Sequence record: PZ386953.1
Reading direction: 5' to 3' (one strand)
Source: a phage
DNA: 64,000 nucleotides
Part shown: positions 1 through 57,444 of the stretch, piece by piece
How positions within the stretch are numbered: position 1 is the first letter of the stretch
Layout: each line of letters opens with the position of its first letter
Program-made: the position numbers and the translations under genes
Notes under the pieces: generated by a model
The model's database searches: none
The model's input: only the letters and a program-made list of their open reading frames with translations
Told to the model about the DNA's origin: nothing

Positions 1-1
1 T

Positions 2-2590
2 ACTAAAAAGGGTGGTGTCAAGGTAAAACTTCGTCAGGATGCTAAAGAGTGGAATGATGCCACAGGGCAACTTCCGGATTCTGGCGATGTAGATATTCCA
101 ATATCTCCATCTGGTGTAGCTCAACCGCAAAACTTCAGATATTCCGTTCTCCAAGCTGGAGAAGTAACTCACGGTGTTTTGGCTTGGGACAACGTTGGGA
201 CATACGCTCAAAATATTGTGCAGGTAAGAAAGAACGGAGAGATTGTTTGGACAGCACAGACAGTTGAGCAGTTTGTCCGTGTTGAGGGTCTGACTAAAGG
301 ATTCTACACAGCCACTGTTGTTGCAACATCTTATAAAGGTGGTGTATCTCCGGAAGCATATTGTGAGTTCAACATTCAGGCACCTGAAGCTCCTGTTTCT
401 GTGGAGGTTAAACAGGGATACTTTGCTATTACCCTGATCCCGCACAGCAGAGACTTGGCTAGTGTAAGCACCCAGTACGACTTTTGGACATCTGGGATGA
501 CAAGATTGCCAGATACCAGTGATGCAACCGTTACTTCAAAAGCCACGCGTATGGGTGTTGGTTCAACTTGGACATCTGAAGGTCTGCAGAACGATAAGAT
601 TTATTATTGGTACATTAGAACCACAAACGCTTTTGGTAGTTCTCAGTTTGTAGAATGCGCTGCACGCTGCTATACATCCATTGAAGATCTGATGCCTCAG
701 ATAGATGCTGAATTTAAAAAGACAGAAACTTATAAAGAGTTGATGAGCACTTTAGATTCCTCTATCGAAGAGGTTGAAAATCGGGTCACAGAGCTCAATA
801 AATACATGGATGGTAGGGTAGATGAAGCATTCCAGCAACTCGGAGATAGGATAGGCGCGGTAGTTACAGAGACAACTCAGAAGTTTGAGGATGTCAATGG
901 TAACATTACAGCACTGGATAAGAAACTTGTTGCTGCACAAAATAAGTTTACTAACGACCTGAACACTGAAAGTGGTAGACTGGCATCCCTGATCGAGACA
1001 ACCAATAAAGCAACTACTGATCTTTTGAACAAAAAGACAGAGGCTTTAGATGAAAAATTGGTTGCCGCCAAGGGTGAGCTGGTAGAGCAAATAGGGGGTG
1101 TTGAGAGCGGATACCTTGCTGGAGATAAAACTCTAGATGGCAAGATCAATACTCAGAGAACAGAGCTTGATGCAAGTATCCTAAGCACCAACAAGGCAAC
1201 AGTGGATCTTTTGAACAAGACCTCTGAAACCCTGGATCAAAAGATTAGTCAGACAAATGCGACGGTATCTAAGAACTATACCACGTTAGATGGTAAGATA
1301 ACCACTGCAAAAACTGATCTCAATACTTTGATCGCTAATACCAATAAGGCCACCACAGATTTATTGAATCAGAAAACATCTGCACTGTCAGAGCAGATAA
1401 CTTCTGCCCGTGGAGAGATCTCTACCAACAAGCAGGCAATTAAGGACTTGGATGGGAAACTTACCTCCACAAAAACAGCACTTGATGCTACAATTTCTGA
1501 TACTAATAAAGCCACTGTGGATCTTATTAACGGTACCGCGTCAGCTATTCGCCAAGAACTTGCGGTTGCTAAACAGGAAATAATTGATGATGTTGGTGAT
1601 GTATCTGAGCTTAGAGCTGCAGTAGCTACAACATCTAAGGCTGTAACCGACTTAGAGGGCAAAGTAAATGCTCAATGGGGAACAAAGATACAGGTAGACT
1701 CCGCAGGGAATAAGTATGTTGCAGGTATCCAGCTGGGCATGGAGGGGTCTGGGGGACAAGTTCAATCATACTTCATGGTTAGTGCAAACAACTTTGCGGT
1801 ATACAACCCCGGAAACGGAACAGCAACCCTTGCTTTCGCAATCAAGAACAACCAAGCGTTCTTGAAAGACGCTTTTATAGAGAATGGCACAATCTCCTCT
1901 GCCAAGATTGCACAAGAAATTTCGTCAAACAACTACGATGGCAACGGGTACCATAAATACGGTTGGTATATTAACAAGAACGGGCATGCCCAATTTATGG
2001 ATGTGTGGGTGAAAGGCAACATTAACGCCAGTTCTGGTAACTTCACAGGGGCAGTTAACGCCACTAGTGGTACCTTCCGTGGAGATGTTTATGCCAATAA
2101 TGGTAGCTTTAGAGGCACCATAGATGCAACCGGAGGTACATTCCGTGGTCGTGTAGAAGCTTCTGTTATCCGTGCTAACCAGTTTGAAGGTGCAATTGTT
2201 GCACACAGGACTTACGGAGATTGTGCTCCAGTATATAACTCCCAGCAGAGGGTTTGCCGTTGGAGGTGGAGATACGTAGATAACGTTTCAGGTCAAGGTA
2301 AGAACGTAACATTCTTCTTTAAACTGAACGGTACTCGTGCCAACTCCCAACTAAATGCGTGGATAGCTGGTCATCAACTCCTTGCTGGCAAGAAGTACGG
2401 AAACGACAATGATGGCATGTGTGCAGTTGGGATAACAGGTCTAGGTGAACAGACTATAGACATTATTATTGAAATCTACACCCCGTGGTCAACGTCAAAC
2501 GTGACAGGTATTACAATATCCTGTCCTACTGTGGTTGTTAGTCGTTCTAACTCCAGCTTCCAGGGACCTTGGAACGAGTCTCACGACTAA
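2..2590 (+). CDS. tail fibre protein, 5'-partial, coiled-coil shaft
   Basis: Frame is open from the window edge (tool start 179 is an internal TTG); about 4 tandem ~60-aa repeats (TNKAT-DLLNK); G/S/T/N-rich C-terminus; hairpin terminator follows. Confidence 0.6.
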   Translation, partial: TKKGGVKVKLRQDAKEWNDATGQLPDSGDVDIPISPSGVAQPQNFRYSVLQAGEVTHGVLAWDNVGTYAQNIVQVRKNGEIVWTAQTVEQFVRVEGLTKGFYTATVVATSYKGGVSPEAYCEFNIQAPEAPVSVEVKQGYFAITLIPHSRDLASVSTQYDFWTSGMTRLPDTSDATVTSKATRMGVGSTWTSEGLQNDKIYYWYIRTTNAFGSSQFVECAARCYTSIEDLMPQIDAEFKKTETYKELMSTLDSSIEEVENRVTELNKYMDGRVDEAFQQLGDRIGAVVTETTQKFEDVNGNITALDKKLVAAQNKFTNDLNTESGRLASLIETTNKATTDLLNKKTEALDEKLVAAKGELVEQIGGVESGYLAGDKTLDGKINTQRTELDASILSTNKATVDLLNKTSETLDQKISQTNATVSKNYTTLDGKITTAKTDLNTLIANTNKATTDLLNQKTSALSEQITSARGEISTNKQAIKDLDGKLTSTKTALDATISDTNKATVDLINGTASAIRQELAVAKQEIIDDVGDVSELRAAVATTSKAVTDLEGKVNAQWGTKIQVDSAGNKYVAGIQLGMEGSGGQVQSYFMVSANNFAVYNPGNGTATLAFAIKNNQAFLKDAFIENGTISSAKIAQEISSNNYDGNGYHKYGWYINKNGHAQFMDVWVKGNINASSGNFTGAVNATSGTFRGDVYANNGSFRGTIDATGGTFRGRVEASVIRANQFEGAIVAHRTYGDCAPVYNSQQRVCRWRWRYVDNVSGQGKNVTFFFKLNGTRANSQLNAWIAGHQLLAGKKYGNDNDGMCAVGITGLGEQTIDIIIEIYTPWSTSNVTGITISCPTVVVSRSNSSFQGPWNESHD
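900..1560 (+). repeat. tandem in-frame coding repeats (~180 bp period)
   Basis: Four imperfect copies encoding TNKATxDLLNKxTxALxxK in the fibre shaft. Confidence 0.55.
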
Positions 2591-2598
2591 CCTTTAAA

Positions 2599-2626
2599 GC
2601 CCCGCTTCGGCGGGGTTTATTTTTAT
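2599..2626 (+). terminator. intrinsic terminator
   Basis: CCCCGC-TTCG-GCGGGG hairpin then TTTATTTTTAT. Confidence 0.7.
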
Positions 2627-2695
2627 GCTCAGATTGACTATTGTTACAAAATTTGGTAAAATACCTTGTAGAGATTTTCATACCGGAGGAGTGAC

Positions 2696-4186: not shown

Positions 4187-4197
4187 GGCGGCGAGAT

Positions 4198-4884
4198 ATG
4201 GCAGAGATTAAGTCGGATGTTAACCACATCCACACTCTGCCAGATTTTGTTCAGGGAGGTCTTGACTACCTGCCTGGAGATTTTCTGGCTGAGAAGGTTA
4301 ATTTAGTCACATTCTTAACCGTGTACCTTAAAAGGTTGGAGGATGTTGATAAGATGCTGGTAGGTTTGGCTGAAGGAAGATTGCTTAATAATGCCAGCGG
4401 AAGATACCTTGACGAAGTTGGTAATCAACTCGGTATTCTTAGGAATGGACTTTCAGATGCTGATTTTCGTGCCACACTAATTATTCAGCAGGCCGCAGCA
4501 TCAAGGGGCGGGACTCGCGAAGATGTCATCTCCACCTTGCGACAATTGTTCGGAAGAAACAATTTCGATACGTGGAAAGGAGACAACTTCAGGTTTGACA
4601 TAAATATTAGAAAAACTTGCTTTGACATATTGCAGTCTATTGATCAGATCTTAGACATGCTACCACTGCCTTGTCATTTGCGTCTTACAGAATCGCAAGG
4701 GCAAGCTTTTGGTTTTGAAGGTGACTCTACAGCTCTTGGCTTCGGATCAGTGTGGGAAGAAAACCAATTCGGAGTTGGTGGGCTGGCTACTTTGCTGTAT
4801 GTTCCTGACGTAAGACCTGATTGGGACACCACAACCATTTATTGTGAAAGTATTACAGTAAACGCAACTAGACAGGAGGGTTAA
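4198..4884 (+). CDS. hypothetical structural protein
   Basis: 228-aa ORF tightly packed in the structural operon. Confidence 0.4.
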   Translation: MAEIKSDVNHIHTLPDFVQGGLDYLPGDFLAEKVNLVTFLTVYLKRLEDVDKMLVGLAEGRLLNNASGRYLDEVGNQLGILRNGLSDADFRATLIIQQAAASRGGTREDVISTLRQLFGRNNFDTWKGDNFRFDINIRKTCFDILQSIDQILDMLPLPCHLRLTESQGQAFGFEGDSTALGFGSVWEENQFGVGGLATLLYVPDVRPDWDTTTIYCESITVNATRQEG

Positions 4885-6956
4885 TGGCAACAGCTGTTTT
4901 TAAACCTTACCGTGATTACTCTACAATGGCTGCACGGTTTCATTACCGCACAGTTCAGGATACTGCCGTTCCTGGTAGGGATTATGATCATGTTGAGGGC
5001 GATATAACTATCCCAGTTGGGGCAACCAGTATTGAAATCCCAGTGGAAATTGTTGACAAATTACCCAACAGGTTACCAAGAAGCTTCTTTATGGAGTTTT
5101 CATCAAAATCTCAAGGGGTGATGATTGGGACACAAAGGGCGAAATGTACAATAGTTTCAGATGAGAATCTTGACAGAATATCTTGGGATACTGTCGAGGA
5201 GAGAATGTTTCACCCAAGATATTGGGTTACAACCACTCAGCAGACTGAAAGTACCTGTATTGTTGCAGATGACAACTGTTGTATTAACCGTTTAGTGTCA
5301 AGAACATATGGAGGTATGGCTGGGTGCATTTGGGAAACAGTTGACAAGTATGACCATTTCGGTATTGGGTTTGATGATCACTATGAGATGAGAAACACCA
5401 AGCTTTGGTTCAGAATGTCAATAACCAATGCCAGCAACTTCTCCACTCCTGAAAAGATGATTATGACTGTAGACCTTGTTGATGGTACAATCATCTATGT
5501 TCCTTTAGCTCAATATGCTGTCAGCATCTCAGAGGATAAGAATGTTGCAGAGATTCATATTGATTTCGAGGACTGCGTCGGGATGGATCAGAACAACAAC
5601 ATGATGGGTGTTGATCCTCGACAGGTGAGAAGAATTTTAATACCGCTCATGCCTAAAGACTGGGTAAGTAATAGCACAGACCCGAGAACGGAAAATGTAG
5701 AGTGTGAGTTGCGCCTAGATCTGCTTCAGCCAGACACGGGCTGGAAAATGATGCAACTTAACAATATTCAGGTTAAAGAGCACGACGTTGGGATCTGCAC
5801 CGCATATGACGATATGTGGAACGTATCTCCTTTAAGGGTGTTGAACAATATCAAGCGTCTGGGCTATACCGGAACCATAAACCATTATGTTGGTATGAGT
5901 CATTATTATGACTACACATGGTCAGGAACCCAATGGTCTATAAACAGAACAGGAGCGCTAAACGCTGCAGCTTATAAATGGCATGATGATTTTATGTACA
6001 ATGCCAAACGACATAACTTCGACGTTATGCAATCTGTAAGTTTTGAGCTTTTCAGCGATGCCTGCCCGTTGGAATGGACCCAAAGAGACTGGAACGATAA
6101 CTACGCTAAAACAGGGTATACACCTTGTAGCTACCTCCTGTCTCCAACCATTGAAGAGGGTATGAATTTCCTTACTGCAGTATTTAAGAATTTTGCATCA
6201 GCCGCTATGAGAAACAACCTGCCAGTGATTATGCAGGTTGGTGAACCGTGGTGGTGGTACAATACCGATACTCGTAGACCTTGTATTTATGATTACCCTA
6301 CAAAACAGGCGTTTTATGATGAGACAGGCGAGTATGCCTTAGATATTGGGACTATTGACGATCCTAAAACTGGAGGTGTTTACGACAAGTATGTAGCATT
6401 TTGTCGTGGTAAGCTTGGCGCTCGTATTGCGGCTATTTCAAAGGCAATAAAGGCACACGCTGCATCAGCTCAGATGACAGCTCTGCTGTTTTTCCCAACC
6501 ATTATGGAAACCGAGCTTACGCAAAAGCTTAACCTTGCTGACCAATATAAAAAAGAAGCAGGCGCTCTTGATTTCTTCTGCACTGAGTGCTACGATTGGG
6601 TGATGCAGGGAGGTATTGAAAAGGCAAAAGAGTCTGTAAACATACCTATCGTTAAGTTAGGTTGGCAACCGTCTGAAATACAATACCTTGCAGGGTTCGT
6701 TCCTAGTAAAGAGCTTGCTCCGGTATATGGATACGACCCAACTAGGAATTACCAAGAATTTTTATGGAGATGTATTTGCGGAAACATGGCAACTATAGAG
6801 TATAGATACCCTGAGGTAAAACAGTATGTGTGGGCATACCCGCAAGTAATGTCTGACAGCATCACTGTTACCGCTAGAGATTCTACCGTGCTTCATATGG
6901 GGCAGGTTGCTCTGAAAGGGTATGTAGAAGATGTTGTCCCGCCAGACTTCTCATAA
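4884..6956 (+). CDS. hypothetical structural protein
   Basis: 690-aa ORF; TAATG stop-start overlap with upstream gene; AGGAGGG RBS. Confidence 0.4.
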   Translation: MATAVFKPYRDYSTMAARFHYRTVQDTAVPGRDYDHVEGDITIPVGATSIEIPVEIVDKLPNRLPRSFFMEFSSKSQGVMIGTQRAKCTIVSDENLDRISWDTVEERMFHPRYWVTTTQQTESTCIVADDNCCINRLVSRTYGGMAGCIWETVDKYDHFGIGFDDHYEMRNTKLWFRMSITNASNFSTPEKMIMTVDLVDGTIIYVPLAQYAVSISEDKNVAEIHIDFEDCVGMDQNNNMMGVDPRQVRRILIPLMPKDWVSNSTDPRTENVECELRLDLLQPDTGWKMMQLNNIQVKEHDVGICTAYDDMWNVSPLRVLNNIKRLGYTGTINHYVGMSHYYDYTWSGTQWSINRTGALNAAAYKWHDDFMYNAKRHNFDVMQSVSFELFSDACPLEWTQRDWNDNYAKTGYTPCSYLLSPTIEEGMNFLTAVFKNFASAAMRNNLPVIMQVGEPWWWYNTDTRRPCIYDYPTKQAFYDETGEYALDIGTIDDPKTGGVYDKYVAFCRGKLGARIAAISKAIKAHAASAQMTALLFFPTIMETELTQKLNLADQYKKEAGALDFFCTECYDWVMQGGIEKAKESVNIPIVKLGWQPSEIQYLAGFVPSKELAPVYGYDPTRNYQEFLWRCICGNMATIEYRYPEVKQYVWAYPQVMSDSITVTARDSTVLHMGQVALKGYVEDVVPPDFS

Positions 6957-6968
6957 TCAGGAGATAAA

Positions 6969-8009
6969 ATGTCAAAACCTAGTTTTCCATTAGAGATTTG
7001 GGCAGAGGAGGATCAGGTTCTGCCTAACACCCACAGACAGAACAGGCTACGCCCGATTGATGATTTGTGGAGAAAAGGTTGGGATCTTGGTCAAAAGCCC
7101 TCATGTGAAGAACTTAACTATATTTTCAATATGCTCGGAACTTGGGCAAAATATATTGCTGACGAGCAGATCCCCGCTCAAGAAGGCCGTTATCTGGTAC
7201 GCGATAATAACTTGAGTGATCTTTTGAACATTCCTGTTGCCCGTAGAAACCTTGGGATTATTACTAAGGAAGAGGCAGACGCCAGATATGTAAAAGTTAC
7301 AGGTGATACAATGACAGGCCCACTGGGTTTGCAACGTATCAACTTTAAAGCTGCCGAGACAGATAAGGCTTGGATAGAGACAACTATTGGCCCAGATAAG
7401 ACAACTCTCGACTTTGGGTTAAGTGATAATACCGGGTCGTTTGATGATGGTGGTACATCTACAGTAGATGCGTTCCGTTGGAGATTCCAGCCAACTCAGC
7501 CGGATATTAATCCAGAGTTCACTTTGATGTACCTTAACGCGATCACGGCTAACCGTGCGCTGTTGAAAGTGGTAGGCAATGTTGAAGTTGTCGATAACAT
7601 GAGGTGCAATAACCTTACTATCAGCAATACAGCAACATTCACCAACTGTAATGTGGCTAGTCAGTTGACGGCTGGGTCAGTATATGTTAATGGTGGTGCA
7701 AGTTGTGACAGCATGGTTGTAAGAAGCCAGCACTGTGTTGTCGGTAACAGAAATGTGGTGCGCTCTGTGAATGGGGTGACGGCTAACGGTAACGGTGATG
7801 TAACAATCACTATCCCGCAGACAGGTGTGCAAGACATCAGAATCGGTGCAAGACTTGTTGACGGCGTTTCTGAATCTCCAATTCGCAACGGCTACGTTGT
7901 CACAGGCTGGCATTTCGGTGACAAAAAAGAGATGCGTGGTTCAACCTACTGGGCAGGACCTTTACAAAAACTTGTAAATGGTCAATGGATCACTGTTAAT
8001 TATGCATAG
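6969..8009 (+). CDS. tail fibre / receptor-binding protein, paralog A
   Basis: 346 aa; N-terminus, central FRWRFQP motif and C-terminal LVNGQWIT shared with 9024..10067. Confidence 0.5.
   Translation: MSKPSFPLEIWAEEDQVLPNTHRQNRLRPIDDLWRKGWDLGQKPSCEELNYIFNMLGTWAKYIADEQIPAQEGRYLVRDNNLSDLLNIPVARRNLGIITKEEADARYVKVTGDTMTGPLGLQRINFKAAETDKAWIETTIGPDKTTLDFGLSDNTGSFDDGGTSTVDAFRWRFQPTQPDINPEFTLMYLNAITANRALLKVVGNVEVVDNMRCNNLTISNTATFTNCNVASQLTAGSVYVNGGASCDSMVVRSQHCVVGNRNVVRSVNGVTANGNGDVTITIPQTGVQDIRIGARLVDGVSESPIRNGYVVTGWHFGDKKEMRGSTYWAGPLQKLVNGQWITVNYA
7965..7994 (+). repeat. 30-bp direct repeat, copy 1 (3' end of fibre gene A)
   Basis: CAAAAACTTGTAAATGGTCAATGGATCACT, identical at 10023..10052. Confidence 0.8.
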
Positions 8010-8023
8010 ATCGGAGGACTAGC

Positions 8024-8608
8024 ATGAAAATACTTCAAGAGTTTAAACTTTACCAACCGGGATCTGGCGAATACCACCCTAACAAGGGAACCAAGGAGCT
8101 GACCCCTCAAGAGGTTGAGGATTACACCGCATACACTGGGTATTTTTTACGTAATGATGATGGCGATTGGTATGTGCAGTCACGAACATTACGACAAGAA
8201 AATCCGGGTTGTATCTTCCTACTTGTTGACGAGAAGGGAATTCTTAAGACATCTACAGAAGAACCTGATGCCCTATGGCCTGCTCCAGGTCTTCGTGTGG
8301 TTATCGCCAAAAAAGAAGAGGTACCAGAAAACATTATGCTTCACCACGACGCTTTGCGTTTAGTTGGTGATGAATTTGTCACAGACAATGAATTCTTTGT
8401 TCAACAGGCAGAGGGTGTCATAGAGACAGAACTTGCTTGGGCTACTGCTAGAATTGGTGCCTATCAAGACATGATTGACCTTGAATATGATCTTACTGAT
8501 GACCAGAAACGTAACATCAGAGATTTGAAAATGTACAGGGTAAAACTTCTTGAAATAGATACATCTAAAGCCCCTGACATTTTCTTCCCGGAGCGACCTA
8601 CCCTCTAA
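8024..8608 (+). CDS. hypothetical protein (fibre-associated?)
   Basis: 194-aa ORF with GGAGGA RBS directly after the fibre gene. Confidence 0.35.
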   Translation: MKILQEFKLYQPGSGEYHPNKGTKELTPQEVEDYTAYTGYFLRNDDGDWYVQSRTLRQENPGCIFLLVDEKGILKTSTEEPDALWPAPGLRVVIAKKEEVPENIMLHHDALRLVGDEFVTDNEFFVQQAEGVIETELAWATARIGAYQDMIDLEYDLTDDQKRNIRDLKMYRVKLLEIDTSKAPDIFFPERPTL

Positions 8609-8619
8609 GAGGAGGTGTT

Positions 8620-8934
8620 GTGGAGTTGGATTTGGCGGCATTGTACGGTATCTGCATGGGTACCGTTGTCCCGATCTGTGTATGGGCTTTCAACCAGTGG
8701 CACACCAAATGGAAAGGCATTTCCAAGAGGTTGGATGAACTGGAGAAAGACCTCATCTTAGTGAAAAACAGTATGGTTACAAAAGATAAACTTGATTCTA
8801 TTATCGAGACCCGGTTAAGCAAGCTAGAGGCCGATATTAACGACCTTAAGCAGGATGTTAGGACAGATGTCTCCGGCATCAGAGCTGATGTACAAAAGAT
8901 TTTGCACATGCTTGTAGAGCATAGTAAAAGGTAA
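8620..8934 (+). CDS. small membrane-anchored coiled-coil protein
   Basis: GTG start after GAGGAGG; N-terminal hydrophobic segment followed by heptad-like sequence. Confidence 0.3.
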   Translation: MELDLAALYGICMGTVVPICVWAFNQWHTKWKGISKRLDELEKDLILVKNSMVTKDKLDSIIETRLSKLEADINDLKQDVRTDVSGIRADVQKILHMLVEHSKR

Positions 8935-9023
8935 ACAAAGGTCAGGACGGAAAGGACTCCGTTCTTGCATTTTGTTCACTAAAGTGTTAAAATAGTCCTA
9001 AGGAATTTTCTCAGGAGAACGTG

Positions 9024-10067
9024 ATGACTAAACCAGTTATCCCTCTTGATATTTGGGCCAATCAGGATGTTGTGCTTGAAAATACGGGAGAATTGAATAA
9101 GTCCCAACCAAAAAAAGAAGAGAGACTGAAAGGTTGGGATATGACACAAAGAGTGGCATGTGAAGTTGTTAACTTTGAACTTCACATGCTTTCTGCGTGG
9201 TTAAAGCATTTAACAGAAGATGTTGTCCCAGGATGGGATAATAGATTCTTAAGGGTCACTAATAATCTGGCAGACGTTCCAGACAAAGCTGCTGCACGTC
9301 AAGTTCTCAATGTATACTCGCCTGAAGAAATGGATGACCTTTATGTTGACAAGGCTGGAGACACAATGATCCAGACTCAAACTTTAGGTCTTCAAAGAAT
9401 CGAGTTTGCATCCGCGTCAACAGACAATGCGGCGATATACACCACCATAACTTCAGACAAGACGATGATGGATTTCTGGATTATGGACAACATCGGTGGT
9501 GCTGACGGCACAGACCTTGATGATCCCTCTCACCAAATAGACGGTTTCCGTTGGAGATTTCAACCTTCTGGTGGGCAGCCTGTGTTTTCAGCTATGAAGC
9601 TCAATGCTATAACTGCCAACCGTGCAAGACTGGCTATCCAAGGAAATCTTGAATGCAACGACGCAAAAAGTTCCTCTGCAAATGCCAATGCAGCTACGAT
9701 ACCAAGAGCCACTGTTAATGGACAACAATCCTGTGGAAGCGCTCAAATAGGTGGAAGAGTTGATTGTAACGATGAAACCGTCAGGGGCCAATATGCAACA
9801 GTTGGTGGAAGAAACGTGGTCCGCAGGGTAAATGGTAACAGCGCAGACGGTAGTGGTAACCTTACTATCCCTATGCCCAGCAGAGGGGTTGATGATGTGA
9901 GGATAGCAAACCGTTTCAAAACCACCTACAGAGAGTCAAGAGTCTACCCTGGACATGTGATGTGCTCGGGTAACTACGCTTATAAACACCCTTATCAAGG
10001 TGATTACTGGACAGGTGCTATCCAAAAACTTGTAAATGGTCAATGGATCACTATATCTTATGCTTAA
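9024..10067 (+). CDS. tail fibre / receptor-binding protein, paralog B
   Basis: Paralog of 6969..8009 with identical 30-nt 3' segment; ATG 3 nt inside tool GTG start, CAGGAGA RBS. Confidence 0.5.
   Translation: MTKPVIPLDIWANQDVVLENTGELNKSQPKKEERLKGWDMTQRVACEVVNFELHMLSAWLKHLTEDVVPGWDNRFLRVTNNLADVPDKAAARQVLNVYSPEEMDDLYVDKAGDTMIQTQTLGLQRIEFASASTDNAAIYTTITSDKTMMDFWIMDNIGGADGTDLDDPSHQIDGFRWRFQPSGGQPVFSAMKLNAITANRARLAIQGNLECNDAKSSSANANAATIPRATVNGQQSCGSAQIGGRVDCNDETVRGQYATVGGRNVVRRVNGNSADGSGNLTIPMPSRGVDDVRIANRFKTTYRESRVYPGHVMCSGNYAYKHPYQGDYWTGAIQKLVNGQWITISYA
10023..10052 (+). repeat. 30-bp direct repeat, copy 2 (3' end of fibre gene B)
   Basis: Identical 30-mer. Confidence 0.8.
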
Positions 10068-10078
10068 AAAGAGGGTAA

Positions 10079-10345
10079 ATGAAACTAACTCAGTTTTTAT
10101 GGGGACTGGTTGCGGCATCTGATGACCCTACGAAAGTGTCCCAATCTAAGCTATGGTCAAACATAGGTATGGCGGTGATGACTGGGGTGTTTATTCATAT
10201 GGGGTATAATGATACGCTTCCTGAATGGTATGCGTGGATATATGCGCCTTCGGTAGCTTGCCCCCAGCTTATTAGCAAATTCATCTCGCTCCGGTGGGGT
10301 TGCCAGCACCCTGACCACGTTAAAAACGAAGAGCAAAAAGCTTAA
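10079..10345 (+). CDS. small membrane protein
   Basis: 88 aa with 2-3 hydrophobic segments; follows fibre gene. Confidence 0.3.
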   Translation: MKLTQFLWGLVAASDDPTKVSQSKLWSNIGMAVMTGVFIHMGYNDTLPEWYAWIYAPSVACPQLISKFISLRWGCQHPDHVKNEEQKA

Positions 10346-10354
10346 GGAGAGATC

Positions 10355-12100
10355 ATGGCGCAAGACATGACAAGCTTTGAGCAGGCGGTAGATCAAGTAA
10401 TTGTTGATTCTGAACGTTTGCACCTGATTGTCAACGGTAACGCTGTGGATGAGGTTGTCGTAGAGGATGGGACCACCATCCCTACGGTACGAAAAGCCAT
10501 GCTTGACACCCTTTATTTTAAAACGCCGCCGATCCCTTGGGCGTATGGTGCATCCACAACAGTTTTTAACCAGCTATATGAGTTTAAAGGGGACACAGGG
10601 CCCCAGTGGTGGTACGCTCCCGCAGCATCAAAATCTAACCCGGTTAGAATGCCAGCAGATCCTTCACAATCCCCAAACTGGAGATTATATACTGACTCTG
10701 CAGTAATGGCAAAATACTATGCAAAACTTAACAGCCCAAGGTTCGAAGGTGACCCGCGAGTACCTACACCTCCAATGGACGATAAGTCAGAGTCTATAGC
10801 AAACACAGAGTTTGTTGTTGACTATGTTGATAGTATATTTAAAGCCATGGAGGGGATGAAAGTTACTGTAGGATCTTTGGTGGTGAAAGGTCTTACAGAA
10901 CTCGCTAACACCATAGTTGGTGGCACCCTTACCTTACATGGACCTGTTAATGGGGCAGATTCTACTGCACGCTTTAGGAATCTAATCCTCACGGCAAATA
11001 CTTCTACACTTACTTTTGCGTGGAGCGATCCTAAGCATGCAGACTGGAGAAGTACAGAGCTGCAACCTCATGAAGTGTCCACCCACAGGGTTATAGCTGA
11101 CACTATAACTTCTGGGAAACCAGTGGCTAATAATAACGATGTACATTTTGATGGTCTGGGTAATAACTTTTTTGACTACGTGTACATTCGTGGTAATGCC
11201 ATGAAGGCAGCAACCGAACCGACATTGCAGGTCGATGGGACCACCAGGGTTAAGAACCTTGAGGTGACAGGTACCGTTACAGGGATAACCTACTCTGTTG
11301 ATGGCACCATGATCTACCCTAGCTATATTGAAAGCACGGGCGATGCATTGATAAACGGCGATTTGGAGGTTGGCGGGTCTGTAGTTATCCGAGGTACAGC
11401 CTCTATCCAAAATATAGCTCTGAATACTTTAAGAGTCAATGAGCGTGCAACTTTTGAAGGAGAAGGGCTTACAGCCAATAAAGGTACAATTACTGAGCTG
11501 ACCACCACCACTTTAACTGCAACAACTGCAAACTCTGAAAACTGCAACATTACCAGAAACTTGCAGGTAAATGGAGATGTTAGTTTAAACGCCGCAGGGA
11601 CTGGCACCACCTACCTTCACAATCTTGAAATATCCGGCACAGTGACCGGATGGCTGCCAGACTTCTCTAATGTCAACTTTGTCTGTAATGGTATTAACTC
11701 CAGTGGTAAGATAACCACCTCTCAAGAAATTGAGGCTGGTAAAACCATCACTGCCCCTACTTTCCACGCAGGGAAGGTAGATTTCGATTTAGAGGAGGTT
11801 GACGCGTCCAGTGGGACATGGACACCTAACGGGCAGGCCAGTATGTATGTTGTCCACGCTAAAGGGGATTTTACAATAGGGCAGTGGCCTGGGACATCAG
11901 CGGAAGATAAACCTTATCCATTTACTGCGGTTATCTATGTAATTCAGGATGCTGTAGGTCACAACGTGACTTTGCACGATAAGTATGCTATCCTGTCGGC
12001 AACACCTGTTATTAACAACAAGGCTAACAGTGTTACCTTGCTGCAATTAACGTATTGTGGTGTTGGTGATATCGTAGATGTAGTAATTGCACAACGTTAA
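10355..12100 (+). CDS. tail fibre / tailspike-like protein
   Basis: 581 aa, G/T/N-rich repetitive beta-type sequence; AAGGAGA RBS; terminator follows. Confidence 0.45.
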   Translation: MAQDMTSFEQAVDQVIVDSERLHLIVNGNAVDEVVVEDGTTIPTVRKAMLDTLYFKTPPIPWAYGASTTVFNQLYEFKGDTGPQWWYAPAASKSNPVRMPADPSQSPNWRLYTDSAVMAKYYAKLNSPRFEGDPRVPTPPMDDKSESIANTEFVVDYVDSIFKAMEGMKVTVGSLVVKGLTELANTIVGGTLTLHGPVNGADSTARFRNLILTANTSTLTFAWSDPKHADWRSTELQPHEVSTHRVIADTITSGKPVANNNDVHFDGLGNNFFDYVYIRGNAMKAATEPTLQVDGTTRVKNLEVTGTVTGITYSVDGTMIYPSYIESTGDALINGDLEVGGSVVIRGTASIQNIALNTLRVNERATFEGEGLTANKGTITELTTTTLTATTANSENCNITRNLQVNGDVSLNAAGTGTTYLHNLEISGTVTGWLPDFSNVNFVCNGINSSGKITTSQEIEAGKTITAPTFHAGKVDFDLEEVDASSGTWTPNGQASMYVVHAKGDFTIGQWPGTSAEDKPYPFTAVIYVIQDAVGHNVTLHDKYAILSATPVINNKANSVTLLQLTYCGVGDIVDVVIAQR

Positions 12101-12107
12101 TATATCT

Positions 12108-12136
12108 AACCGCTCCTGACGGGGCGGTTTTCTTAT
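12108..12136 (+). terminator. intrinsic terminator
   Basis: AACCGCTCC-TGAC-GGGGCGGTT hairpin then TTCTTATC. Confidence 0.6.
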
Positions 12137-12148
12137 CTGGAGAACACA

Positions 12149-15100
12149 ATGCTTCCAATCCCTTTGCTAAAACTTGGTCGTCATTTCCTCGATAAGAGGG
12201 GTGGAATTAAGGAACTTGCTGTTCTGTCATACCCAATAGACAACAGTGATGGTACAAGCAATACAGTATCCTATGTAAATAGCTTAGCTATACTTTTTGA
12301 TGATGGTCAGCTTAATATTACTGGTTATAATAGGTTCGGAGAGTGTCGGACTGGAGATCTTGATACAATAAACTATCCTAATGAGGCAGCTTGGAACGTA
12401 GACCATGTTTGGAGAGCTGACCGTGCATTTGTAATCCGCACATTCGATAATAAATTTTTCTATATTGGTTGCACAGCTGGTCTTATCGGATCGGAGGCAG
12501 CAGGTGGAAACGATGTTTGTGTCAGAGAGTGGACACCTTTGCCGGAACAGATCGTAACAGGGTTGCATTTGGACACCCATCCTGAGAGACTTGTTGAAGT
12601 AATGGGTGGCGTAAACAATACAGTGTGGGTAATTGCTGCACCAGAGGCTGATGGTATGCTTCACCTGTACGGCTCTGGCAATAATACTTACGGCTCTCTT
12701 CATGTTGACAAAAATCAACACGCTACTCCAGTTAAGATTGGTGAAACATCTGAAAGTCCAGAGACAGGTCCTTGGAAAAACCCAAGAATTAATTGTGAAG
12801 TTCATGACAACTCGGTTATTTTTGGTGGTCCTAACGGATTCTGGATTGCAGGTTACGATTTCTTAAGAAATAACAGCAAAAACACACTAATTTATCCAGC
12901 CGAGCATGCGACTCTTGACCAGTTTAAAGGCATCTCGGTGGGCGAGACATGGAAAGGGTTTATGTGTGGACCTAATGGTGCAATTATAGCCACAGAAAGG
13001 ATGCACAAACCTGATGACCAACAGCTTGTTAATGTGTTTTATGGTCAGGATGTTTGGGGTGACGACACGTGGAGAAGCCTTAACATCACCTATACCCATG
13101 AAGTAATTATGGCTCGCGGGTACGGGACTAGTGGAATTTTCTTCAATAATGGTACAAAACAGTACCGTGGTTTCTCCAGAAACCTGTGTAACGATATTGG
13201 TGCTCAATCTGCTAATAATAATCCTAGGGCCAATTTTATTCATTACAGAGCGCTGGCAACAGCTAAGTTTGTTGAACAGACAGAGCCAGTAAGCTGGACA
13301 GAAAGCGTTTATTTTCAAGGGATCCACAGGGAAGGTTTCTTAGGCACATTCTGTGTGGTAAATGGAAAGCTTTGGTGGTCAGGTATCCCAAGGGGCAGTT
13401 TTTCAGGCTCTAATAACCTGTTCGGCGGCAGACTTAACAGCCAAGGGTTCACAGAGATTCCTGAGAATTGGTATAAAAATGTTCCGGTAGATAGCTGGAG
13501 TATCGAAGACATCTTTGATGTCAATGGTGTAAGCAGTGTTAGCAATATATACATTGGCGACACTGTCAAAATGAAGTTGAAACCTCAACCGGAGGGTGCT
13601 ACGTTCATTATTGACAAGATTGAGCTCGTGAACGCTGCAGGTACTGTTGTTACAGATGCAAACTATCAGTTCTCTACTAGCTGGAACCATGGCGGTGCTA
13701 ACGAGGTTGTGGTTACCCAGCATAACCGTAACATCAACAGACGCGGTCTGTATTCTGTCAAGATCACCTATCATGATAAACATGGCGCTGGAAGAACCCA
13801 CACCACACGAAACTTAAACTGGAACATTGTAGTTCCTGCATATCCGTCAGACGGCAAATGGCACACTGTTGGCAGGAAGAAACAGTTCCATGTAAACGAT
13901 ACTGTATACTTTGGGCTTAACGGCTCTCAGCCTGCTCCAGAAAGCGATACAGCATATATGGTTAGGCTTCACAGGCAAGATGCCGGATCTACCACGTATG
14001 ATGTGACCCAGGAGATCTACGACCAGAGACGCAGTATCTATGACAATCTTGTGAAAACACAAGCCTTGTGGGAGTTCAACCCTAACGGCAAAGGCGGGAA
14101 GATGCTGCAGGTTAACGAGCAGAACGGAACATCGTTAACAGTGCACGAGCATGCTGATCCATGGCCTGATCCTGGTAAGCCTAACCCAGGTGCTCGCACA
14201 CTGAAAGTTGTTAGCCACAACGCAGGGTATTTCGGGATACGTTGGGAAGCTACAGTAAAATATGTTGATGGAACAACAAACAATATAGGTATTACTCTGG
14301 GTGGTACCAGTGAAGATAGTTCTCTGAAAATTGCCTACACCCCTAGAGGCATCTCTATTGACAATATGGATATAGTTCGTAACGGTTACGGTGATGTAAA
14401 CATCAAAGTTACCCTCGGTGAACATCTTGGTGGAGAAAGGATCATCATGTATGCCTTTGACCATGATCCTCGCACCAATGGAACCTATGCAAATCAGGCG
14501 TGGAGTTACCTGATAAATGCACCTGAGCCAAATACTAAAGAGTTTTATTATGGTATGAAGCGCGATGTGTGCAAGAAAACAGGAACACATGACTGGATCG
14601 CTATCTGCGTTAAAGATGAGCGGACAGCTTGGGACGAGCCTGTTAACAGATGGTTCATAGGAATCCCAACCAGAAGTGATAAATATGTCACAGAATATAT
14701 TGTGTGCATGGGCGGCACCAACCTGAACCTGTGTTGGAACGAAGATGCAAACAAATATTCCGATTATGACTATATGAGAGATATCTCTTGTAATCAGTGG
14801 TTTAACCAGACTACAGGTTACCCTCCGCGTCAGGCGAGAGTAAACCCTGCAATCTTCACAGATACGCAGGTTTTCTTGACAAAACAGGCCAACGAGGTTC
14901 AGACCTTCAAGAACAAATACGACCCTAACAAGTGGTTTTATAACTGTTATGGCGCATTTTTCTGGGGTCCGGGGGAACTACCTAACGGGGGATCTTGCTT
15001 CGAGGCTGCAACCTATGGCAGCGACTATATTATGGGGCAAGTCAAGAAATACAAAATGATCCCTGGTCCTGAAACCCTGGGTAATGCTGTTGACCCGTAT

Positions 15101-17785
15101 ATAGTCTTCTCGTCTGTCCATGCAAATATGAACGGAGAGAAGTATCCGTTCGACGTTCCGGTAGCCAATGGATACAGACGTGTCGTGATGATCATTAAGT
15201 GCGACCTGATAGGTAAGCAAGTTCCTGCTGAAAACGGAACATCAACACACCCGTTTGAAATTGCTCTGCACTACCAATTTGCAGATTCTCCTTTTGCAGG
15301 GGATAAGAGAATATCTGATACAGATGCACAGCGTTGTAAGAAGGTATTGTTAGGTGCTGGATGGTGGTGGTATGAGTTTGACTTGACAGACAAACTCACA
15401 GACAACACAAAAACTCTTACAGGTATTCGTCTGGACCTTGGTGAAAACATGCACAAAAGTGTCTGCGATGGCACCTATGGTGATCCTACAGTACACTTGA
15501 AATATGTTTCTCTTGAGCATCCGGAGGAAACTGTTATTGGCCCCAAACTGAGACTGTTTGGCAGCTGGATTGCTAAAGACAGAGTAGGAATGGGTAAAAA
15601 GGTAAGAGGATTCCTGATGGATGCGGGGACAGAAGACATGCTGGTTAATGCAGTGTGGCCTACTCTAGAGGGAACCGACTACAACAATGCTGCAAGATCT
15701 GTCAACTGGTTTAACATCCACAGAGCCATGTGGACTACCAACTGCTATTTGTGGAGAGAGCTTAACGATAATGCCTTCGGCTTCAGCAATGGCAGAAGGA
15801 TGGCTATCATTTGCTGGACAACACTGCAACGTTGCTATGACCACAACTATGAAATAGGTGGTAGAGCGTGGAAAGACACCAGGGATAGAATTGTGTACAA
15901 CTTTGCAGACGACAACGGTGGTGGAGCGTATAACTTCGGCACAAGCAGACTTATCCACTTAAACGGATCCTCGGCCTACAAGAAAGAAGGTTACTCTGGA
16001 TCCATGATTGAGTGGGGTCTGGTAAAAGATGCTCGCGTATTGATGGGCCAACAACTTGCTGCTGCAATAGGTCCTAACGCAGTGCAATCTGTTAAACCAG
16101 CGTGGTTCGATATTCCATTGTGGTCATCCGGCACACCAGGGACTGCTGCAATCAATCCTACCACGGGAGATCTGGAAATCTCTTGGGAAGACTTGAAGCA
16201 GGTTGGGGGCTGGGATAAGACAGGGTATCAGGTGCAGTGGTGGAAATCTGACGGATCGTTAGCAGCTGATGAGTTTGTTAAGGACAATTTCTACACCATG
16301 TCCTCTGCAAAAGCACAGGAATTGTTCGGTCAGGCAACTCCGTCAACGATCACCATGTCCATGTGCTGTAAAGACAACAGGACTGGAGCTTTGGGGCCAA
16401 GGGTTGCTAAGGTTTTCTCAGGTATTAAATGGAATCCCTCTGTTCAAAGTGTTTCATGGAAGCAAATAGGTGATAACAAGCTGCTAGTTACCCCCGCCTG
16501 TCAGTTCAACGCAACTCTTAACGTTGATCCTGCTGCTGCGGCAAACTCAGCTAAAGCTTCTGACTTCTCTGTGTCTAACACTGCTATGGCAGATGTGAGG
16601 AAGATTGACACACTGAACGCCAGAATTACCTGTAAAAACACTTATGGCACATTCCAAATCATCAACAACTTCACAGATGCTGATTCTAAGGTAGTGAGGA
16701 CAGCAAGCCAGACTCTGAGTTTAGGAACTCTGGCCTATGCGGCCCTGATCACCGAACAGTCGGCAACACTCCAAGGAGGTGGTGTAGGCAAGTCCATTAC
16801 AACACCTGTGTGGAAGCCAAATGAGTGGGTTGTGTTTGATTTGACTGTGGACTTCTCCAGCGATAATAACTGGACATGGGTAAGGAATTGCTTGTCACAA
16901 CTGATGGGTGGTCCAAGCTCCGTTAGTGATAGCTACGACTCCACTGACCCGAGTGTGTTTCAGGTGGGTAAAACTCACCCGGAGACTGGAGCAACGTTGC
17001 CTGACAGGAAGTATGCTTTGGTTTGCATCTCTTACGGGAAGGCAGATGTCACCTTCTCAGGGACACACACTTATAACGGAACCTACAACTTCTCAAGGAA
17101 GTATAGTCTCAAAGCAGGGAACATTATAGACGAGGTTGGTGTGCTGTATAATCCGGGCAACGGCATAGGGATTGTGGGTGGTAAACTGCAGATGCAGGAA
17201 CCTTCTATTACCCCTTCCAACGTATCCGGGATTAGAAAGACTTGGGAAAGTAGTAATACCAACATTGCAACAGTGGATGCCACCACAGGACTGGTAACAT
17301 TTAAAGCTACTGGGAATGTCACCATAAAGTTTGTAGTTACAGATGATGCAGGGCGCAAAACGTCTTCAACATCTTTTACTGTCAAACAGATGGCACCACA
17401 GTGGAGAATGTGGATAGGTACAGCAACAAACGGGGCATACCCTAATCCGGCAGGTACTTCTGGTATGAAGACTTTCTCTACAAGCAAACCGATGGAGTAC
17501 GGCAGCGGTCCTAAGGTAGGGCAGATGGTGTACTTTGGTGCGTATATTCCTGAAATTATAGGGCTTCCGAGAAGTCAGCTTCAGTTGCTGTTTGGGGCTG
17601 GTGTTGACGATCTTGCCACTTTCGGGTATAGCGACAACATCGAGGCTGCAAGGAGTTCAGGATGGGTAGGGTTCAGAATGGAGTCTGGAAAGGAAGGCAG
17701 GATTCTAGGGACAGCCTCTATAGGTGTTATGTTCCCTGGTGACCAGCAGTATCGTCTAGAAGCCTACGCAACCTTTTCTCGTTAA
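12149..17785 (+). CDS. giant virion protein with Ig-like segment
   Basis: 1878-aa ORF; Ig-like (Big_2-type) stretch near C-terminus (VTFKATGNVTIKFVVTDDAGRKTS); bidirectional terminator follows. Confidence 0.5.
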   Translation: MLPIPLLKLGRHFLDKRGGIKELAVLSYPIDNSDGTSNTVSYVNSLAILFDDGQLNITGYNRFGECRTGDLDTINYPNEAAWNVDHVWRADRAFVIRTFDNKFFYIGCTAGLIGSEAAGGNDVCVREWTPLPEQIVTGLHLDTHPERLVEVMGGVNNTVWVIAAPEADGMLHLYGSGNNTYGSLHVDKNQHATPVKIGETSESPETGPWKNPRINCEVHDNSVIFGGPNGFWIAGYDFLRNNSKNTLIYPAEHATLDQFKGISVGETWKGFMCGPNGAIIATERMHKPDDQQLVNVFYGQDVWGDDTWRSLNITYTHEVIMARGYGTSGIFFNNGTKQYRGFSRNLCNDIGAQSANNNPRANFIHYRALATAKFVEQTEPVSWTESVYFQGIHREGFLGTFCVVNGKLWWSGIPRGSFSGSNNLFGGRLNSQGFTEIPENWYKNVPVDSWSIEDIFDVNGVSSVSNIYIGDTVKMKLKPQPEGATFIIDKIELVNAAGTVVTDANYQFSTSWNHGGANEVVVTQHNRNINRRGLYSVKITYHDKHGAGRTHTTRNLNWNIVVPAYPSDGKWHTVGRKKQFHVNDTVYFGLNGSQPAPESDTAYMVRLHRQDAGSTTYDVTQEIYDQRRSIYDNLVKTQALWEFNPNGKGGKMLQVNEQNGTSLTVHEHADPWPDPGKPNPGARTLKVVSHNAGYFGIRWEATVKYVDGTTNNIGITLGGTSEDSSLKIAYTPRGISIDNMDIVRNGYGDVNIKVTLGEHLGGERIIMYAFDHDPRTNGTYANQAWSYLINAPEPNTKEFYYGMKRDVCKKTGTHDWIAICVKDERTAWDEPVNRWFIGIPTRSDKYVTEYIVCMGGTNLNLCWNEDANKYSDYDYMRDISCNQWFNQTTGYPPRQARVNPAIFTDTQVFLTKQANEVQTFKNKYDPNKWFYNCYGAFFWGPGELPNGGSCFEAATYGSDYIMGQVKKYKMIPGPETLGNAVDPYIVFSSVHANMNGEKYPFDVPVANGYRRVVMIIKCDLIGKQVPAENGTSTHPFEIALHYQFADSPFAGDKRISDTDAQRCKKVLLGAGWWWYEFDLTDKLTDNTKTLTGIRLDLGENMHKSVCDGTYGDPTVHLKYVSLEHPEETVIGPKLRLFGSWIAKDRVGMGKKVRGFLMDAGTEDMLVNAVWPTLEGTDYNNAARSVNWFNIHRAMWTTNCYLWRELNDNAFGFSNGRRMAIICWTTLQRCYDHNYEIGGRAWKDTRDRIVYNFADDNGGGAYNFGTSRLIHLNGSSAYKKEGYSGSMIEWGLVKDARVLMGQQLAAAIGPNAVQSVKPAWFDIPLWSSGTPGTAAINPTTGDLEISWEDLKQVGGWDKTGYQVQWWKSDGSLAADEFVKDNFYTMSSAKAQELFGQATPSTITMSMCCKDNRTGALGPRVAKVFSGIKWNPSVQSVSWKQIGDNKLLVTPACQFNATLNVDPAAAANSAKASDFSVSNTAMADVRKIDTLNARITCKNTYGTFQIINNFTDADSKVVRTASQTLSLGTLAYAALITEQSATLQGGGVGKSITTPVWKPNEWVVFDLTVDFSSDNNWTWVRNCLSQLMGGPSSVSDSYDSTDPSVFQVGKTHPETGATLPDRKYALVCISYGKADVTFSGTHTYNGTYNFSRKYSLKAGNIIDEVGVLYNPGNGIGIVGGKLQMQEPSITPSNVSGIRKTWESSNTNIATVDATTGLVTFKATGNVTIKFVVTDDAGRKTSSTSFTVKQMAPQWRMWIGTATNGAYPNPAGTSGMKTFSTSKPMEYGSGPKVGQMVYFGAYIPEIIGLPRSQLQLLFGAGVDDLATFGYSDNIEAARSSGWVGFRMESGKEGRILGTASIGVMFPGDQQYRLEAYATFSR

Positions 17786-17794
17786 CAAGGGGGT

Positions 17795-17830
17795 AAATAA
17801 AAAGGGGCCAAACGGCCCCTTTCTTTTTAT
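17795..17830. terminator. bidirectional intrinsic terminator
   Basis: AGGGGCC-AAAC-GGCCCCT hairpin flanked by A-tract and T-tract between convergent genes. Confidence 0.7.
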
Positions 17831-17832
17831 AG

Positions 17833-18033
17833 TTAGTAATACTCCCAACATGCCCCATCTTCAGACGGCTTGACGCGCTTACCTTTATGGTCAACATAGG
17901 TATAGCCACAACCTTCACAAATAACAGGTGCTGCATAGCCTTCCTTCCACTGATCCTCAGTGATCAGACCTTCCAAATCTTTGCAGTCAAAGCCAAACAA
18001 CTCTTCAGAGCAATCTTTACAAAAATCAGCCAT
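17833..18033 (-). CDS. zinc-ribbon protein
   Basis: 66 aa with two CxxC pairs; starts just after the bidirectional terminator. Confidence 0.4.
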   Translation of the reverse strand: MADFCKDCSEELFGFDCKDLEGLITEDQWKEGYAAPVICEGCGYTYVDHKGKRVKPSEDGACWEYY

Positions 18034-29028: not shown

Positions 29029-29057
29029 TCCCCCGCTTCGGCGGGGATTTTCTATTT
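29029..29057 (+). terminator. intrinsic terminator
   Basis: CCCCGC-TTCG-GCGGGG (same stem-loop as 2599) then ATTTTCTATTT. Confidence 0.65.
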
Positions 29058-29066
29058 GGAGTCATT

Positions 29067-37070: not shown

Positions 37071-37100
37071 AGGCCCTGCCCGAAAGGGTGGGGCTTTTTG
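37071..37100 (+). terminator. intrinsic terminator
   Basis: GCCCTGCCC-GAAA-GGGTGGGGC then TTTTTG; same 22-mer at 47206. Confidence 0.7.
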
Positions 37101-47203: not shown

Positions 47204-47234
47204 ATAGCCCTGCCCGAAAGGGTGGGGCATTTTT
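47204..47234 (+). terminator. intrinsic terminator
   Basis: GCCCTGCCC-GAAA-GGGTGGGGC then ATTTTTG. Confidence 0.7.
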
Positions 47235-53106: not shown

Positions 53107-53108
53107 GT

Positions 53109-53154
53109 TTATTTTTAGATGGCCTTGACACCAGGGCCATCAATAAAGTAAACT
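53109..53154 (+). promoter_or_regulatory. 46-bp palindromic promoter box, copy 1
   Basis: TTATTTTTAGATGGCCTTGACACCAGGGCCATCAATAAAGTAAACT; 7-bp inverted repeat GATGGCC/GGCCATC brackets the -35 TTGACA. Confidence 0.55.
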
Positions 53155-53727: not shown

Positions 53728-53729
53728 GC

Positions 53730-57441: not shown

Positions 57442-57444
57442 AAT

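Follow-up and report, generated by a model that had tools for sequence, protein, structure and literature searches.

A fixed pair of short tail fibres in Vequintavirus phages and a 30-nucleotide identity probably left by gene conversion

The 64,000-nucleotide (nt) stretch of phage DNA analysed here (sequence record PZ386953.1; the whole stretch is called the window) carries two paralogous tail fibre genes, copy A at positions 6969–8009 and copy B at 9024–10067, with an identical stretch of 30 nt near their 3′ ends. These genes probably form a fixed pair of short fibres, both of them needed by phages of the genus Vequintavirus, in which the 30-nt identity is the remnant of a gene conversion. 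The original prediction had seen in the repeat a ready substrate for the exchange of host-range cassettes. The repeat itself is confirmed (7965–7994 equals 10023–10052, in frame), and exchange through it is unsupported: the alleles are nearly invariant within the genus, the two copies of the repeat acquire substitutions independently and the repeats are direct.

The locus and its published counterparts

By sequence, the window is assigned to Vequintavirus, the genus of rV5-like myoviruses of Escherichia coli. A 6.2-kb block around both fibre genes is 99.3% identical to Escherichia phage vB_EcoM-Pr121LW, and 111 phage records, nearly all Vequintavirus, match the same block colinearly at an identity of at least 90%. 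The gene order is that of the Vequintavirus short-fibre pair: fibre A, chaperone, a 104-residue protein, fibre B, an 88-residue protein and a 581-residue fibre. The counterparts in rV5 are, in order, gp33 (copy A), gp32 (tail fibre assembly protein), gp31, gp30 (copy B), gp29 (membrane protein), gp28 and gp27. In the BASEL phage Bas54 (MaxBurger), bas54_0035 and bas54_0038 are annotated as ‘short tail fiber protein’, with the ‘tail fiber chaperone’ bas54_0036 between them. The rV5 genes gp33/gp32/gp30 and the Bas54 genes bas54_0035/0036/0038 (Kropinski 2013, PMC3606486; Maffei 2021, PMC8594841) are the same genes as in the window, with 97–99% nucleotide identity, equal order and lengths and no material difference. 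An assembly artefact is rejected, the arrangement being seen in >100 independent genomes. The features on which the argument turns are as follows.

6969..8009, plus strand: fibre paralog A (rV5 gp33 / bas54_0035), open reading frame of 346 residues; PHROG 4465 ‘tail fiber protein’, E = 1.8e-171
6969..7292, plus strand: N-terminal baseplate-anchor domain of A, residues 1–108; matches residues 1–111 of the phiTE ‘Short tail fiber’, PDB 9CUY chain c
7821..8006, plus strand: C-terminal tip domain of A, residues 285–346, Mu gpS-like; family-profile match to 5YVQ_A
7965..7994, plus strand: first copy of the exact 30-nt repeat, codons QKLVNGQWIT, inside the extended repeat 7947–8008
8024..8608, plus strand: tail fibre assembly chaperone, 194 residues (rV5 gp32 / bas54_0036); Pfam PF02413 Caudo_TAP, E = 1.3e-11; PHROG 136, E = 3.6e-36
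9024..10067, plus strand: fibre paralog B (rV5 gp30 / bas54_0038), open reading frame of 347 residues; PHROG 4465, E = 1.7e-164
10023..10052, plus strand: second copy of the exact 30-nt repeat, inside the extended repeat 10005–10066

Earlier publications already describe the genes, the paralogy between them, their Mu-like nature and the multi-fibre apparatus that rV5-like phages carry. In 2013, rV5 gp33 and gp30 were recorded as virion proteins that are 42.3% identical (PMC3606486). In 2021, both genes were named paralogous short tail fibres with a chaperone, homologs of Mu gpS/gpU without considerable allelic variation (PMC8594841). The multi-fibre apparatus of phi92 and rV5-like phages is known as a ‘nanosized Swiss army knife’, so that the multi-fibre adsorption apparatus of the original prediction is supported and not new. 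With published genes and a window ∼99% identical to a sequenced phage, the locus has little discovery value. Absent from the published work on rV5 and Bas54 are the 30-nt identity, a local drop in synonymous divergence and the homogenisation of the fibre tips in a sister lineage. The new points are modest: statistics for an old conversion tract at the 3′ end, tip homogenisation in that lineage (L014, below) and a clean swap of tip plus chaperone in a relative of phage Av-05.

Architecture of the two fibres

A and B are 43% identical over their full length (BLASTP, E = 4e-95) and, as had been noticed from the sequence alone, have in common the blocks FRWRFQP, LNAITANRA and LVNGQWIT. In B, an in-frame GTG at 9021 lies ahead of the called start at 9024. 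Domains were assigned from sequence and from matches of a family profile, built from 22 members, to PDB chains, not from a predicted fold; the AlphaFold2 monomer of A, from a 22-sequence alignment, is poor (mean predicted local distance difference test score 61, predicted template modelling score 0.29).

The N-terminus of A matches 9CUY chain c with E = 1.4e-19 as a single sequence and 4.9e-28 with the family profile; the joint through which this phiTE short fibre binds wedge protein 1 consists of residues 3–92 (PMC11972413). The tip matches residues 438–503 of the Mu ‘Tail fiber protein S’ (5YVQ_A) with E = 1.7e-6 as a single sequence and 1.3e-11 with the family profile, which also matches 8JU3_A (E = 5.5e-4) and the phiTE short fibre at its C-terminal end (E = 1.4e-8). 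Fibres from Mu gpS to phiTE keep the motif Q-K/Y-x-V/I-N-G-x-W, and the A tip is 59% identical to the fibre tip of the Rosemountvirus BP63. For copy B, a search of a phage collection with its tip as query gave a best match outside Vequintavirus of 45%, and in that search the B tip was found only in Vequintavirus. An HHpred match to T4 gp12 was reported in 2013 (PMC3606486); gp12 chains are absent from the PDB profile search at E ≤ 0.01. The term ‘short tail fibre’ is a functional name, not a family assignment.

The 30-nt repeat exceeds chance

The repeat is in frame in both genes, lies within the coding sequence, ends 12 nt upstream of the stop codon and is direct in orientation. It is the longest exact match between A and B, the runner-up being 14 nt, and sits in an extended repeat of 62 nt with 84% identity (7947–8008 and 10005–10066). 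Given the protein similarity, the repeat exceeds chance. Across the A/B alignment, the same codon is used at only 37.5% of the 144 positions with an identical and degenerate amino acid; with the window's codon usage, ten identical codons are expected by chance with a probability of 1.3e-4, and two resampling tests that keep the protein alignment give 0.0002 and 0.0001 for a longest run of at least 30 nt. The repeat codons are not strongly preferred (frequencies 0.25–0.56). The synonymous difference between A and B is 0.27 in the last 20 codons versus 0.79–0.89 in four other segments of the genes (Fisher p = 6.5e-5).

Within the genus, the identity is decaying. In nine aligned genomes, the repeat is exact in four (the window, MaxBurger, Pr121LW and rV5) and the A and B copies mismatch in the other five, at one position in JeffSchatz and at 2–4 in JEP1, ECP26, FV3 and SYGMH1. 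The mismatches include a non-synonymous L-to-F change in copy B, and the substitutions are independent in the two copies. In other lineages the residues QKLVNGQWIT are carried by other codons, and Av-05 matches 24 of the 30 nt. At protein level, A and B end in ...QKLVNGQWIT..YA, and single-copy relatives in ...QY[LY][VI]NG.W.TV.N... Since the identity decays in other Vequintaviruses, the most likely origin of the 30-nt stretch is gene conversion over a short tract, before the sampled members of the genus diverged.

Other sources of the repeat were rejected. Recent duplication fails because synonymous sites are saturated everywhere save in the last 20 codons, and it is also contradicted by a tree of the N-terminal plus shaft parts, in which copy B branches outside all single-copy relatives. 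Ongoing homogenisation is rejected on account of the 1–4 substitutions that separate the copies in five of the nine genomes, and nucleotide-level constraint on account of the different codons that encode the same residues in other lineages.

Concerted evolution of the tips in a sister lineage

Two copies are also found in a divergent Vequintavirus-like metagenomic contig (ENA ERZ15185469 NODE_327), here called L014, with paralogs A′ and B′ at 116–1156 and 2190–3254. Its layout is that of the window (A′, chaperone, 104 residues, B′, a 117-residue protein and a 583-residue fibre), the 117-residue protein being a longer counterpart of the 88-residue membrane protein. For the N-terminal part and the shaft, the trees pair A with A′ and B with B′ (100% bootstrap for either pair), and the duplication therefore predates the split between window and L014. 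In the tip tree, B′ groups with A′, again with 100% bootstrap; the A′ and B′ tips are 77–82% identical, versus ∼42% for the rest. Both L014 paralogs end in ...VQTL, as against ..YA in the window pair, and single-copy relatives differ again. The C-terminal end is thus under concerted evolution within each genome lineage.

Among the lineages examined, copy B occurs only in Vequintavirus and L014. Four distant homolog loci (P0005, P0009, P0016 and P0024) are all single-copy, and in Avunavirus, Seunavirus and other single-copy lineages the position of copy B is held by a 157-residue membrane protein (PF26221). Because anchor and shaft, not tip, consistently separate the paralogs in both two-copy lineages, it is suggested that the purpose of the duplication is a pair of structural roles in the baseplate, more than a pair of receptor specificities. 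The single homolog in phi92, gp147, is fibre III and is proposed to mediate irreversible adsorption; LL12 gp29, the counterpart of copy B by gene order, aligns with gp147 over nearly its full length.

Conservation, essentiality and host range

Both proteins are nearly invariant. For copy A, 101 records have an identity of at least 99% and 15 one of 95–99%; for copy B, 116 records reach 95% or more (95–99% in 114), and the records that carry A carry B too. Isolation hosts are varied (K-12, O157:H7, O121, O177, LF82, Escherichia fergusonii and a Klebsiella strain). Invariance of both genes despite differing hosts, at ≥95% protein identity over ∼116 records, is the outcome that the original prediction had named as fatal to the idea of exchange. 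In the nine aligned genomes, both genes are constant in length and free of indels, the ratio of non-synonymous to synonymous substitution rates is 0.025 for A and 0.059 for B, and their nucleotide identity follows the genome background (93–99%). The variable genes in the same set are the lateral fibres of the gp37 and gp27 types, with 85–92% identity or partial coverage.

The literature supplies the evidence that both fibres are built and needed. Proteomics of rV5 detected gp30, gp32 and gp33 in virions (PMC3606486). In a published transposon screen of Bas54, bas54_0035 was hit at 3 of 61 TA sites and bas54_0038 at 1 of 57, and both were scored ‘Essential’. The same score was given to the chaperone, to the two small proteins and to bas54_0034 and bas54_0040, and the score on K-12 was ‘Non-essential’ for two variable fibres, bas54_0031 and bas54_0041; according to the same literature, on other hosts some of the lateral fibre genes are conditionally essential. 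Within Vequintavirus, short fibres and chaperone are a fixed core, and host-range variation probably resides in the large lateral fibres. For these candidates for phage therapy, host-range engineering is best aimed at the lateral fibres, or at a joint exchange of tip and chaperone as in Av-05-like phages.

Switching of the fibres by an invertase (as in the Gin system of Mu or the Cin system of P1) or by a diversity-generating retroelement is rejected. The repeats are direct, every open reading frame in 4884–12100 encodes a fibre, a chaperone or a small membrane protein, and the inverted repeats in 6000–11000 are only short and imperfect.

As a separate observation, 16–21 GenBank records named ‘Campylobacter phage’ (MG0656xx, host C. 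jejuni) are ∼98% identical to the Vequintavirus block in searches with window positions 6000–12200 and 1–18000. These names probably stem from mislabelled or contaminated records and do not point to a true host.

Tip and chaperone travel together

The chaperone gene at 8024–8608 is the only one in the block and lies between the paralogs, directly downstream of A; B is followed by the 88-residue membrane protein. Chaperones of the Caudo_TAP type bind the distal tip of the fibre, and that of Mu stays in the virion. It may be inferred that B uses the same chaperone as A.

In the wider fibre family, the tip and the chaperone are exchanged as a unit. Av-05 (locus L009) and a metagenomic relative (L020) are 97% identical in nucleotides over positions 1–4890 and 5624–9024 of the Av-05 locus, and the segment 4891–5623 is replaced in L020; it comprises the last ∼60 codons of the fibre gene (4001–5071) and the whole chaperone gene (5081–5626). 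Accordingly, protein identity between the two is 98% for N-terminus plus shaft, 36% for the tip and 29% for the chaperone. Both incoming parts have counterparts in another relative (L019), with 53% identity for the chaperone and 71% for the tip. The same pattern separates P0003 (L021) from L017, with 87% identity in N-terminus plus shaft, 40% in the tip and 21% in the chaperone, and in most pairs compared the identities of tip and chaperone co-vary. Tip and chaperone thus travel together in this family, and it is therefore plausible that a single chaperone serving two fibres constrains their ends to stay compatible. The local synonymous identity in the window and the homogenised tip of the sister lineage likewise suggest that a shared chaperone constrains both paralogs. 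Within Vequintavirus, no allelic replacement of tip plus chaperone was found in the ∼116 records or the nine aligned genomes.

A model for the fibre pair and the alternatives

In the model that we favour, an N-terminal joint of ∼100 residues would dock each trimeric fibre onto the baseplate wedge, followed by a shaft with blocks conserved family-wide and by a C-terminal tip of ∼60 residues of the Mu gpS type. The tip would be folded by the tail fibre assembly chaperone and may remain bound to it. Both fibres would be present in every virion and act at the stage of irreversible binding, presumably to the lipopolysaccharide core, and not as alternative host-range cassettes; being built into every virion and both needed, they would be non-redundant. 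Before the divergence of the known Vequintaviruses, a short non-reciprocal recombination (gene conversion) would have made the last ∼20 codons of the two genes alike, with ordinary substitutions eroding the converted tract since. The converted state was plausibly kept because both tips must fit a single chaperone.

Several points weigh against this model. The conversion tract is short and its statistics rest on ∼13 synonymous sites. The action of the chaperone on both fibres is putative: copy B has no adjacent chaperone gene of its own, and its tip loops (CSGNYAYKHPYQG) deviate from the Mu-like consensus. The insertions scored in Bas54 sit in an operon, where polar effects on essential downstream genes are possible; the transposon used carries no terminator, and the authors of the screen argue that polar effects are rare. 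Finally, in L014 the last 20 codons are protein-identical between the paralogs and yet their synonymous difference is saturated (0.96). Homogenisation in L014 is thus old and this end is under strong protein-level selection, which, as the same L014 end illustrates, can keep it identical in the long term without recent conversion.

This last point leads to the view that no conversion took place and that strong protein constraint on QKLVNGQWIT, together with codon preference, produced a coincidental identity. The conservation of the motif from Mu to phiTE, the saturated L014 end and the 24 matching nt in Av-05 all speak for it, but ten identical codons are expected with a probability of only ∼1.3e-4 (1–2e-4 by resampling), the codons are used at frequencies of just 0.25–0.56 and other lineages choose other ones; we regard it as unlikely. 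Harder still to credit is a nucleotide-level element (an RNA structure, a protein-binding site or a recombination hot spot) maintained by selection on DNA or RNA. Exact identity in four of the nine genomes would fit such an element, and yet the stretch lies inside coding sequence, 12 nt short of the stop codon, takes up synonymous changes and the L-to-F change of copy B within the genus, and in copy A of L014 shows eight base differences in seven of the ten motif codons with the protein unchanged; this explanation is hardly tenable. As for the 30-nt stretch and the shared 5′ blocks forming an active recombination substrate, by which the fibre genes or incoming alleles are exchanged as host-range cassettes, an exact repeat does exist, other members of the family swap tip cassettes and the paralog tips are homogenised in L014. 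Nevertheless, neither the ∼116 records nor the nine aligned genomes contain a single allele replacement or chimera, and the copies of the repeat gain independent substitutions. Crossover between direct repeats would delete the chaperone, the 104-residue gene (gp31) and most of B, all essential in Bas54. The documented swaps have their 5′ junction at about codon 285–297, and their other junction coincides with the 3′ end of the chaperone gene and not with the motif. Moreover, 30 nt is a very short substrate for homologous recombination. Exchange of this kind is very unlikely in Vequintavirus; what holds of the original claim is that cassettes are exchanged in the fibre family (Av-05 versus L020, and the tips of L014), at other boundaries.

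A different question is whether A and B make two fibres at all. They might make up one fibre type, co-assembled as heterotrimers or placed in alternation around the baseplate, which would account both for their being essential, as scored in Bas54, and for the likeness of their chaperone-facing ends. Low-resolution cryo-electron microscopy of Bas54 is reported to show three fibres in each baseplate repeat, of which only one is a short-fibre density, in which A and B are not distinguishable, and the paralogs differ consistently in anchor and shaft, not in the tip. Against this, the N-terminal domains are only 38% identical, the known fibres of this type (Mu, phiTE and phi92) are homotrimers and the two genes apparently lie in separate late transcription units. 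Co-assembly is therefore possible but doubtful. It is equally tentatively that we propose a composite short-fibre system, in which A/B heterotrimers or strictly alternating A3 and B3 trimers would occupy equivalent wedge sites and a single chaperone would fold both; the shared chaperone might then drive repeated concerted evolution of the C-termini, as a short tract in Vequintavirus and as the whole tip in L014. If true, the baseplate would be built in a way unusual for a myovirus, and the gene conversion would be one imposed by the chaperone.

Relation to other fibre systems

With Mu gpS/gpU (PDB 5YVQ), the window pair shares a homologous C-terminal tip, including Q-K-x-[VI]-N-G-x-W, a Caudo_TAP gene downstream of A and a chaperone found in virions (rV5 gp32 by proteomics). 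Mu has one fibre gene, with alternative S and S′ tips switched by Gin inversion; in contrast, the window has two complete fibre genes in direct orientation, one chaperone and no invertase, and single-sequence and profile searches detect no sequence relation between the N-terminal anchors. The short fibre of phiTE (9CUY chain c) and gp147 of phi92 are homologous in both the wedge-binding N-terminal joint and the tip and have the same neighbourhood of wedge genes, fibre, chaperone, small proteins and a fibre of the phiTE_241 type; however, phiTE, phi92, Avunavirus and Seunavirus have a single fibre copy. Host-range cassettes of tip plus chaperone, known from mosaic fibres of the P2/Mu/lambda type, resemble the exchange between Av-05 and L020, unlike the situation in Vequintavirus, where tips and chaperone are fixed. 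Enteric adenoviruses 40 and 41 carry two paralogous fibres with a common anchor in the same particle. Proteins and virus are unrelated there, and the parallel, which would be that of two paralogs sharing equivalent sites, is conceptual only.

Neighbouring genes and intergenic signals

The fibre pair is embedded in further tail genes and in candidate regulatory signals.

2..2590, plus strand: 3′ part of a lateral fibre gene of the gp37 type, ∼1279 residues; frame open from base 2; from rV5 and MaxBurger annotation
4884..6956, plus strand: lateral fibre of 690 residues (rV5 gp34 / bas54_0034); Pfam PF23845, E = 4e-80; PF23844; Calx-beta
8620..8934, plus strand: 104-residue protein (rV5 gp31 / bas54_0037); PHROG 5345; hydrophobic N-terminal stretch and weak coiled-coil-type matches
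8944..8965, plus strand: candidate terminator-like hairpin with T-rich tail, from a pattern scan, between the 104-residue gene and B
8985..8994, plus strand: TGTTAAAATA, candidate late promoter matching the rV5 late-promoter motif TggTAaAAtA, 30 nt upstream of B
10079..10345, plus strand: 88-residue membrane protein (rV5 gp29 / bas54_0039); PHROG 1322 ‘membrane protein’, E = 2.7e-32
10355..12100, plus strand: fibre of 581 residues (rV5 gp28 / bas54_0040), by annotation; counterparts carry PF26208/PF26209, Phage_phiTE_241_N/C
12149..17785, plus strand: lateral fibre of 1878 residues with immunoglobulin-like/intimin domains (rV5 gp27 / bas54_0041); variable, dispensable on K-12 in the Bas54 screen

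In all related lineages examined, the 104- and 88-residue proteins are conserved next to the genes for fibre and chaperone. The 690-residue fibre contains the TIM-barrel/deacetylase domain of the N4 gp65-type non-contractile tail sheath (PF23845), with its N-terminal domain; a 2026 preprint proposes that in Vequintavirus the TIM-barrel domain binds the N4 glycan receptor (10.64898/2026.04.02.716166). The 803-residue protein of the original prediction (179–2590) is not a whole gene; it is the 3′ part of the gp37-type gene, cut by the window edge. This allele varies, as Pr121LW covers only 38% of 2–2590 and JeffSchatz 45%, and its fibre is ‘Non-essential’ in the Bas54 screen. The region 12149–17785 has 85–91% nucleotide identity among relatives versus 93–99% for the neighbouring genes.

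The gap of 89 nt upstream of B holds the hairpin and then the promoter-like motif. The RNA fold of 8930–8985 has −19.4 kcal/mol (z = −4.2). The motif derives from rV5 (PMC3606486); in the form TGKTAAAATA it occurs three times in the window (2654, 8985 and 57498) versus 0.46 expected, and none of 100 shuffles gave three matches. The same pairing of a hairpin (2600–2627) and the motif (2654) precedes the wedge gene, and the hairpins are GC-rich with a T-run. From these consensus matches, A and B probably lie in two successive late transcription units.

Further repeats occur elsewhere in the window. Four direct repeats of 49 nt, 71–98% identical and with an inverted GGCC...GGCC core, lie at 53106–53154, 53727–53775, 54061–54109 and 57442–57490, the last ending 8 nt before the TGTTAAAATA motif at 57498; they are probably regulatory intergenic repeats. 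Near-identical pairs of terminator-like hairpins are also present at distant intergenic sites, at 37073–37099 and 47207–47233 and at 2600–2627 and 29031–29058.

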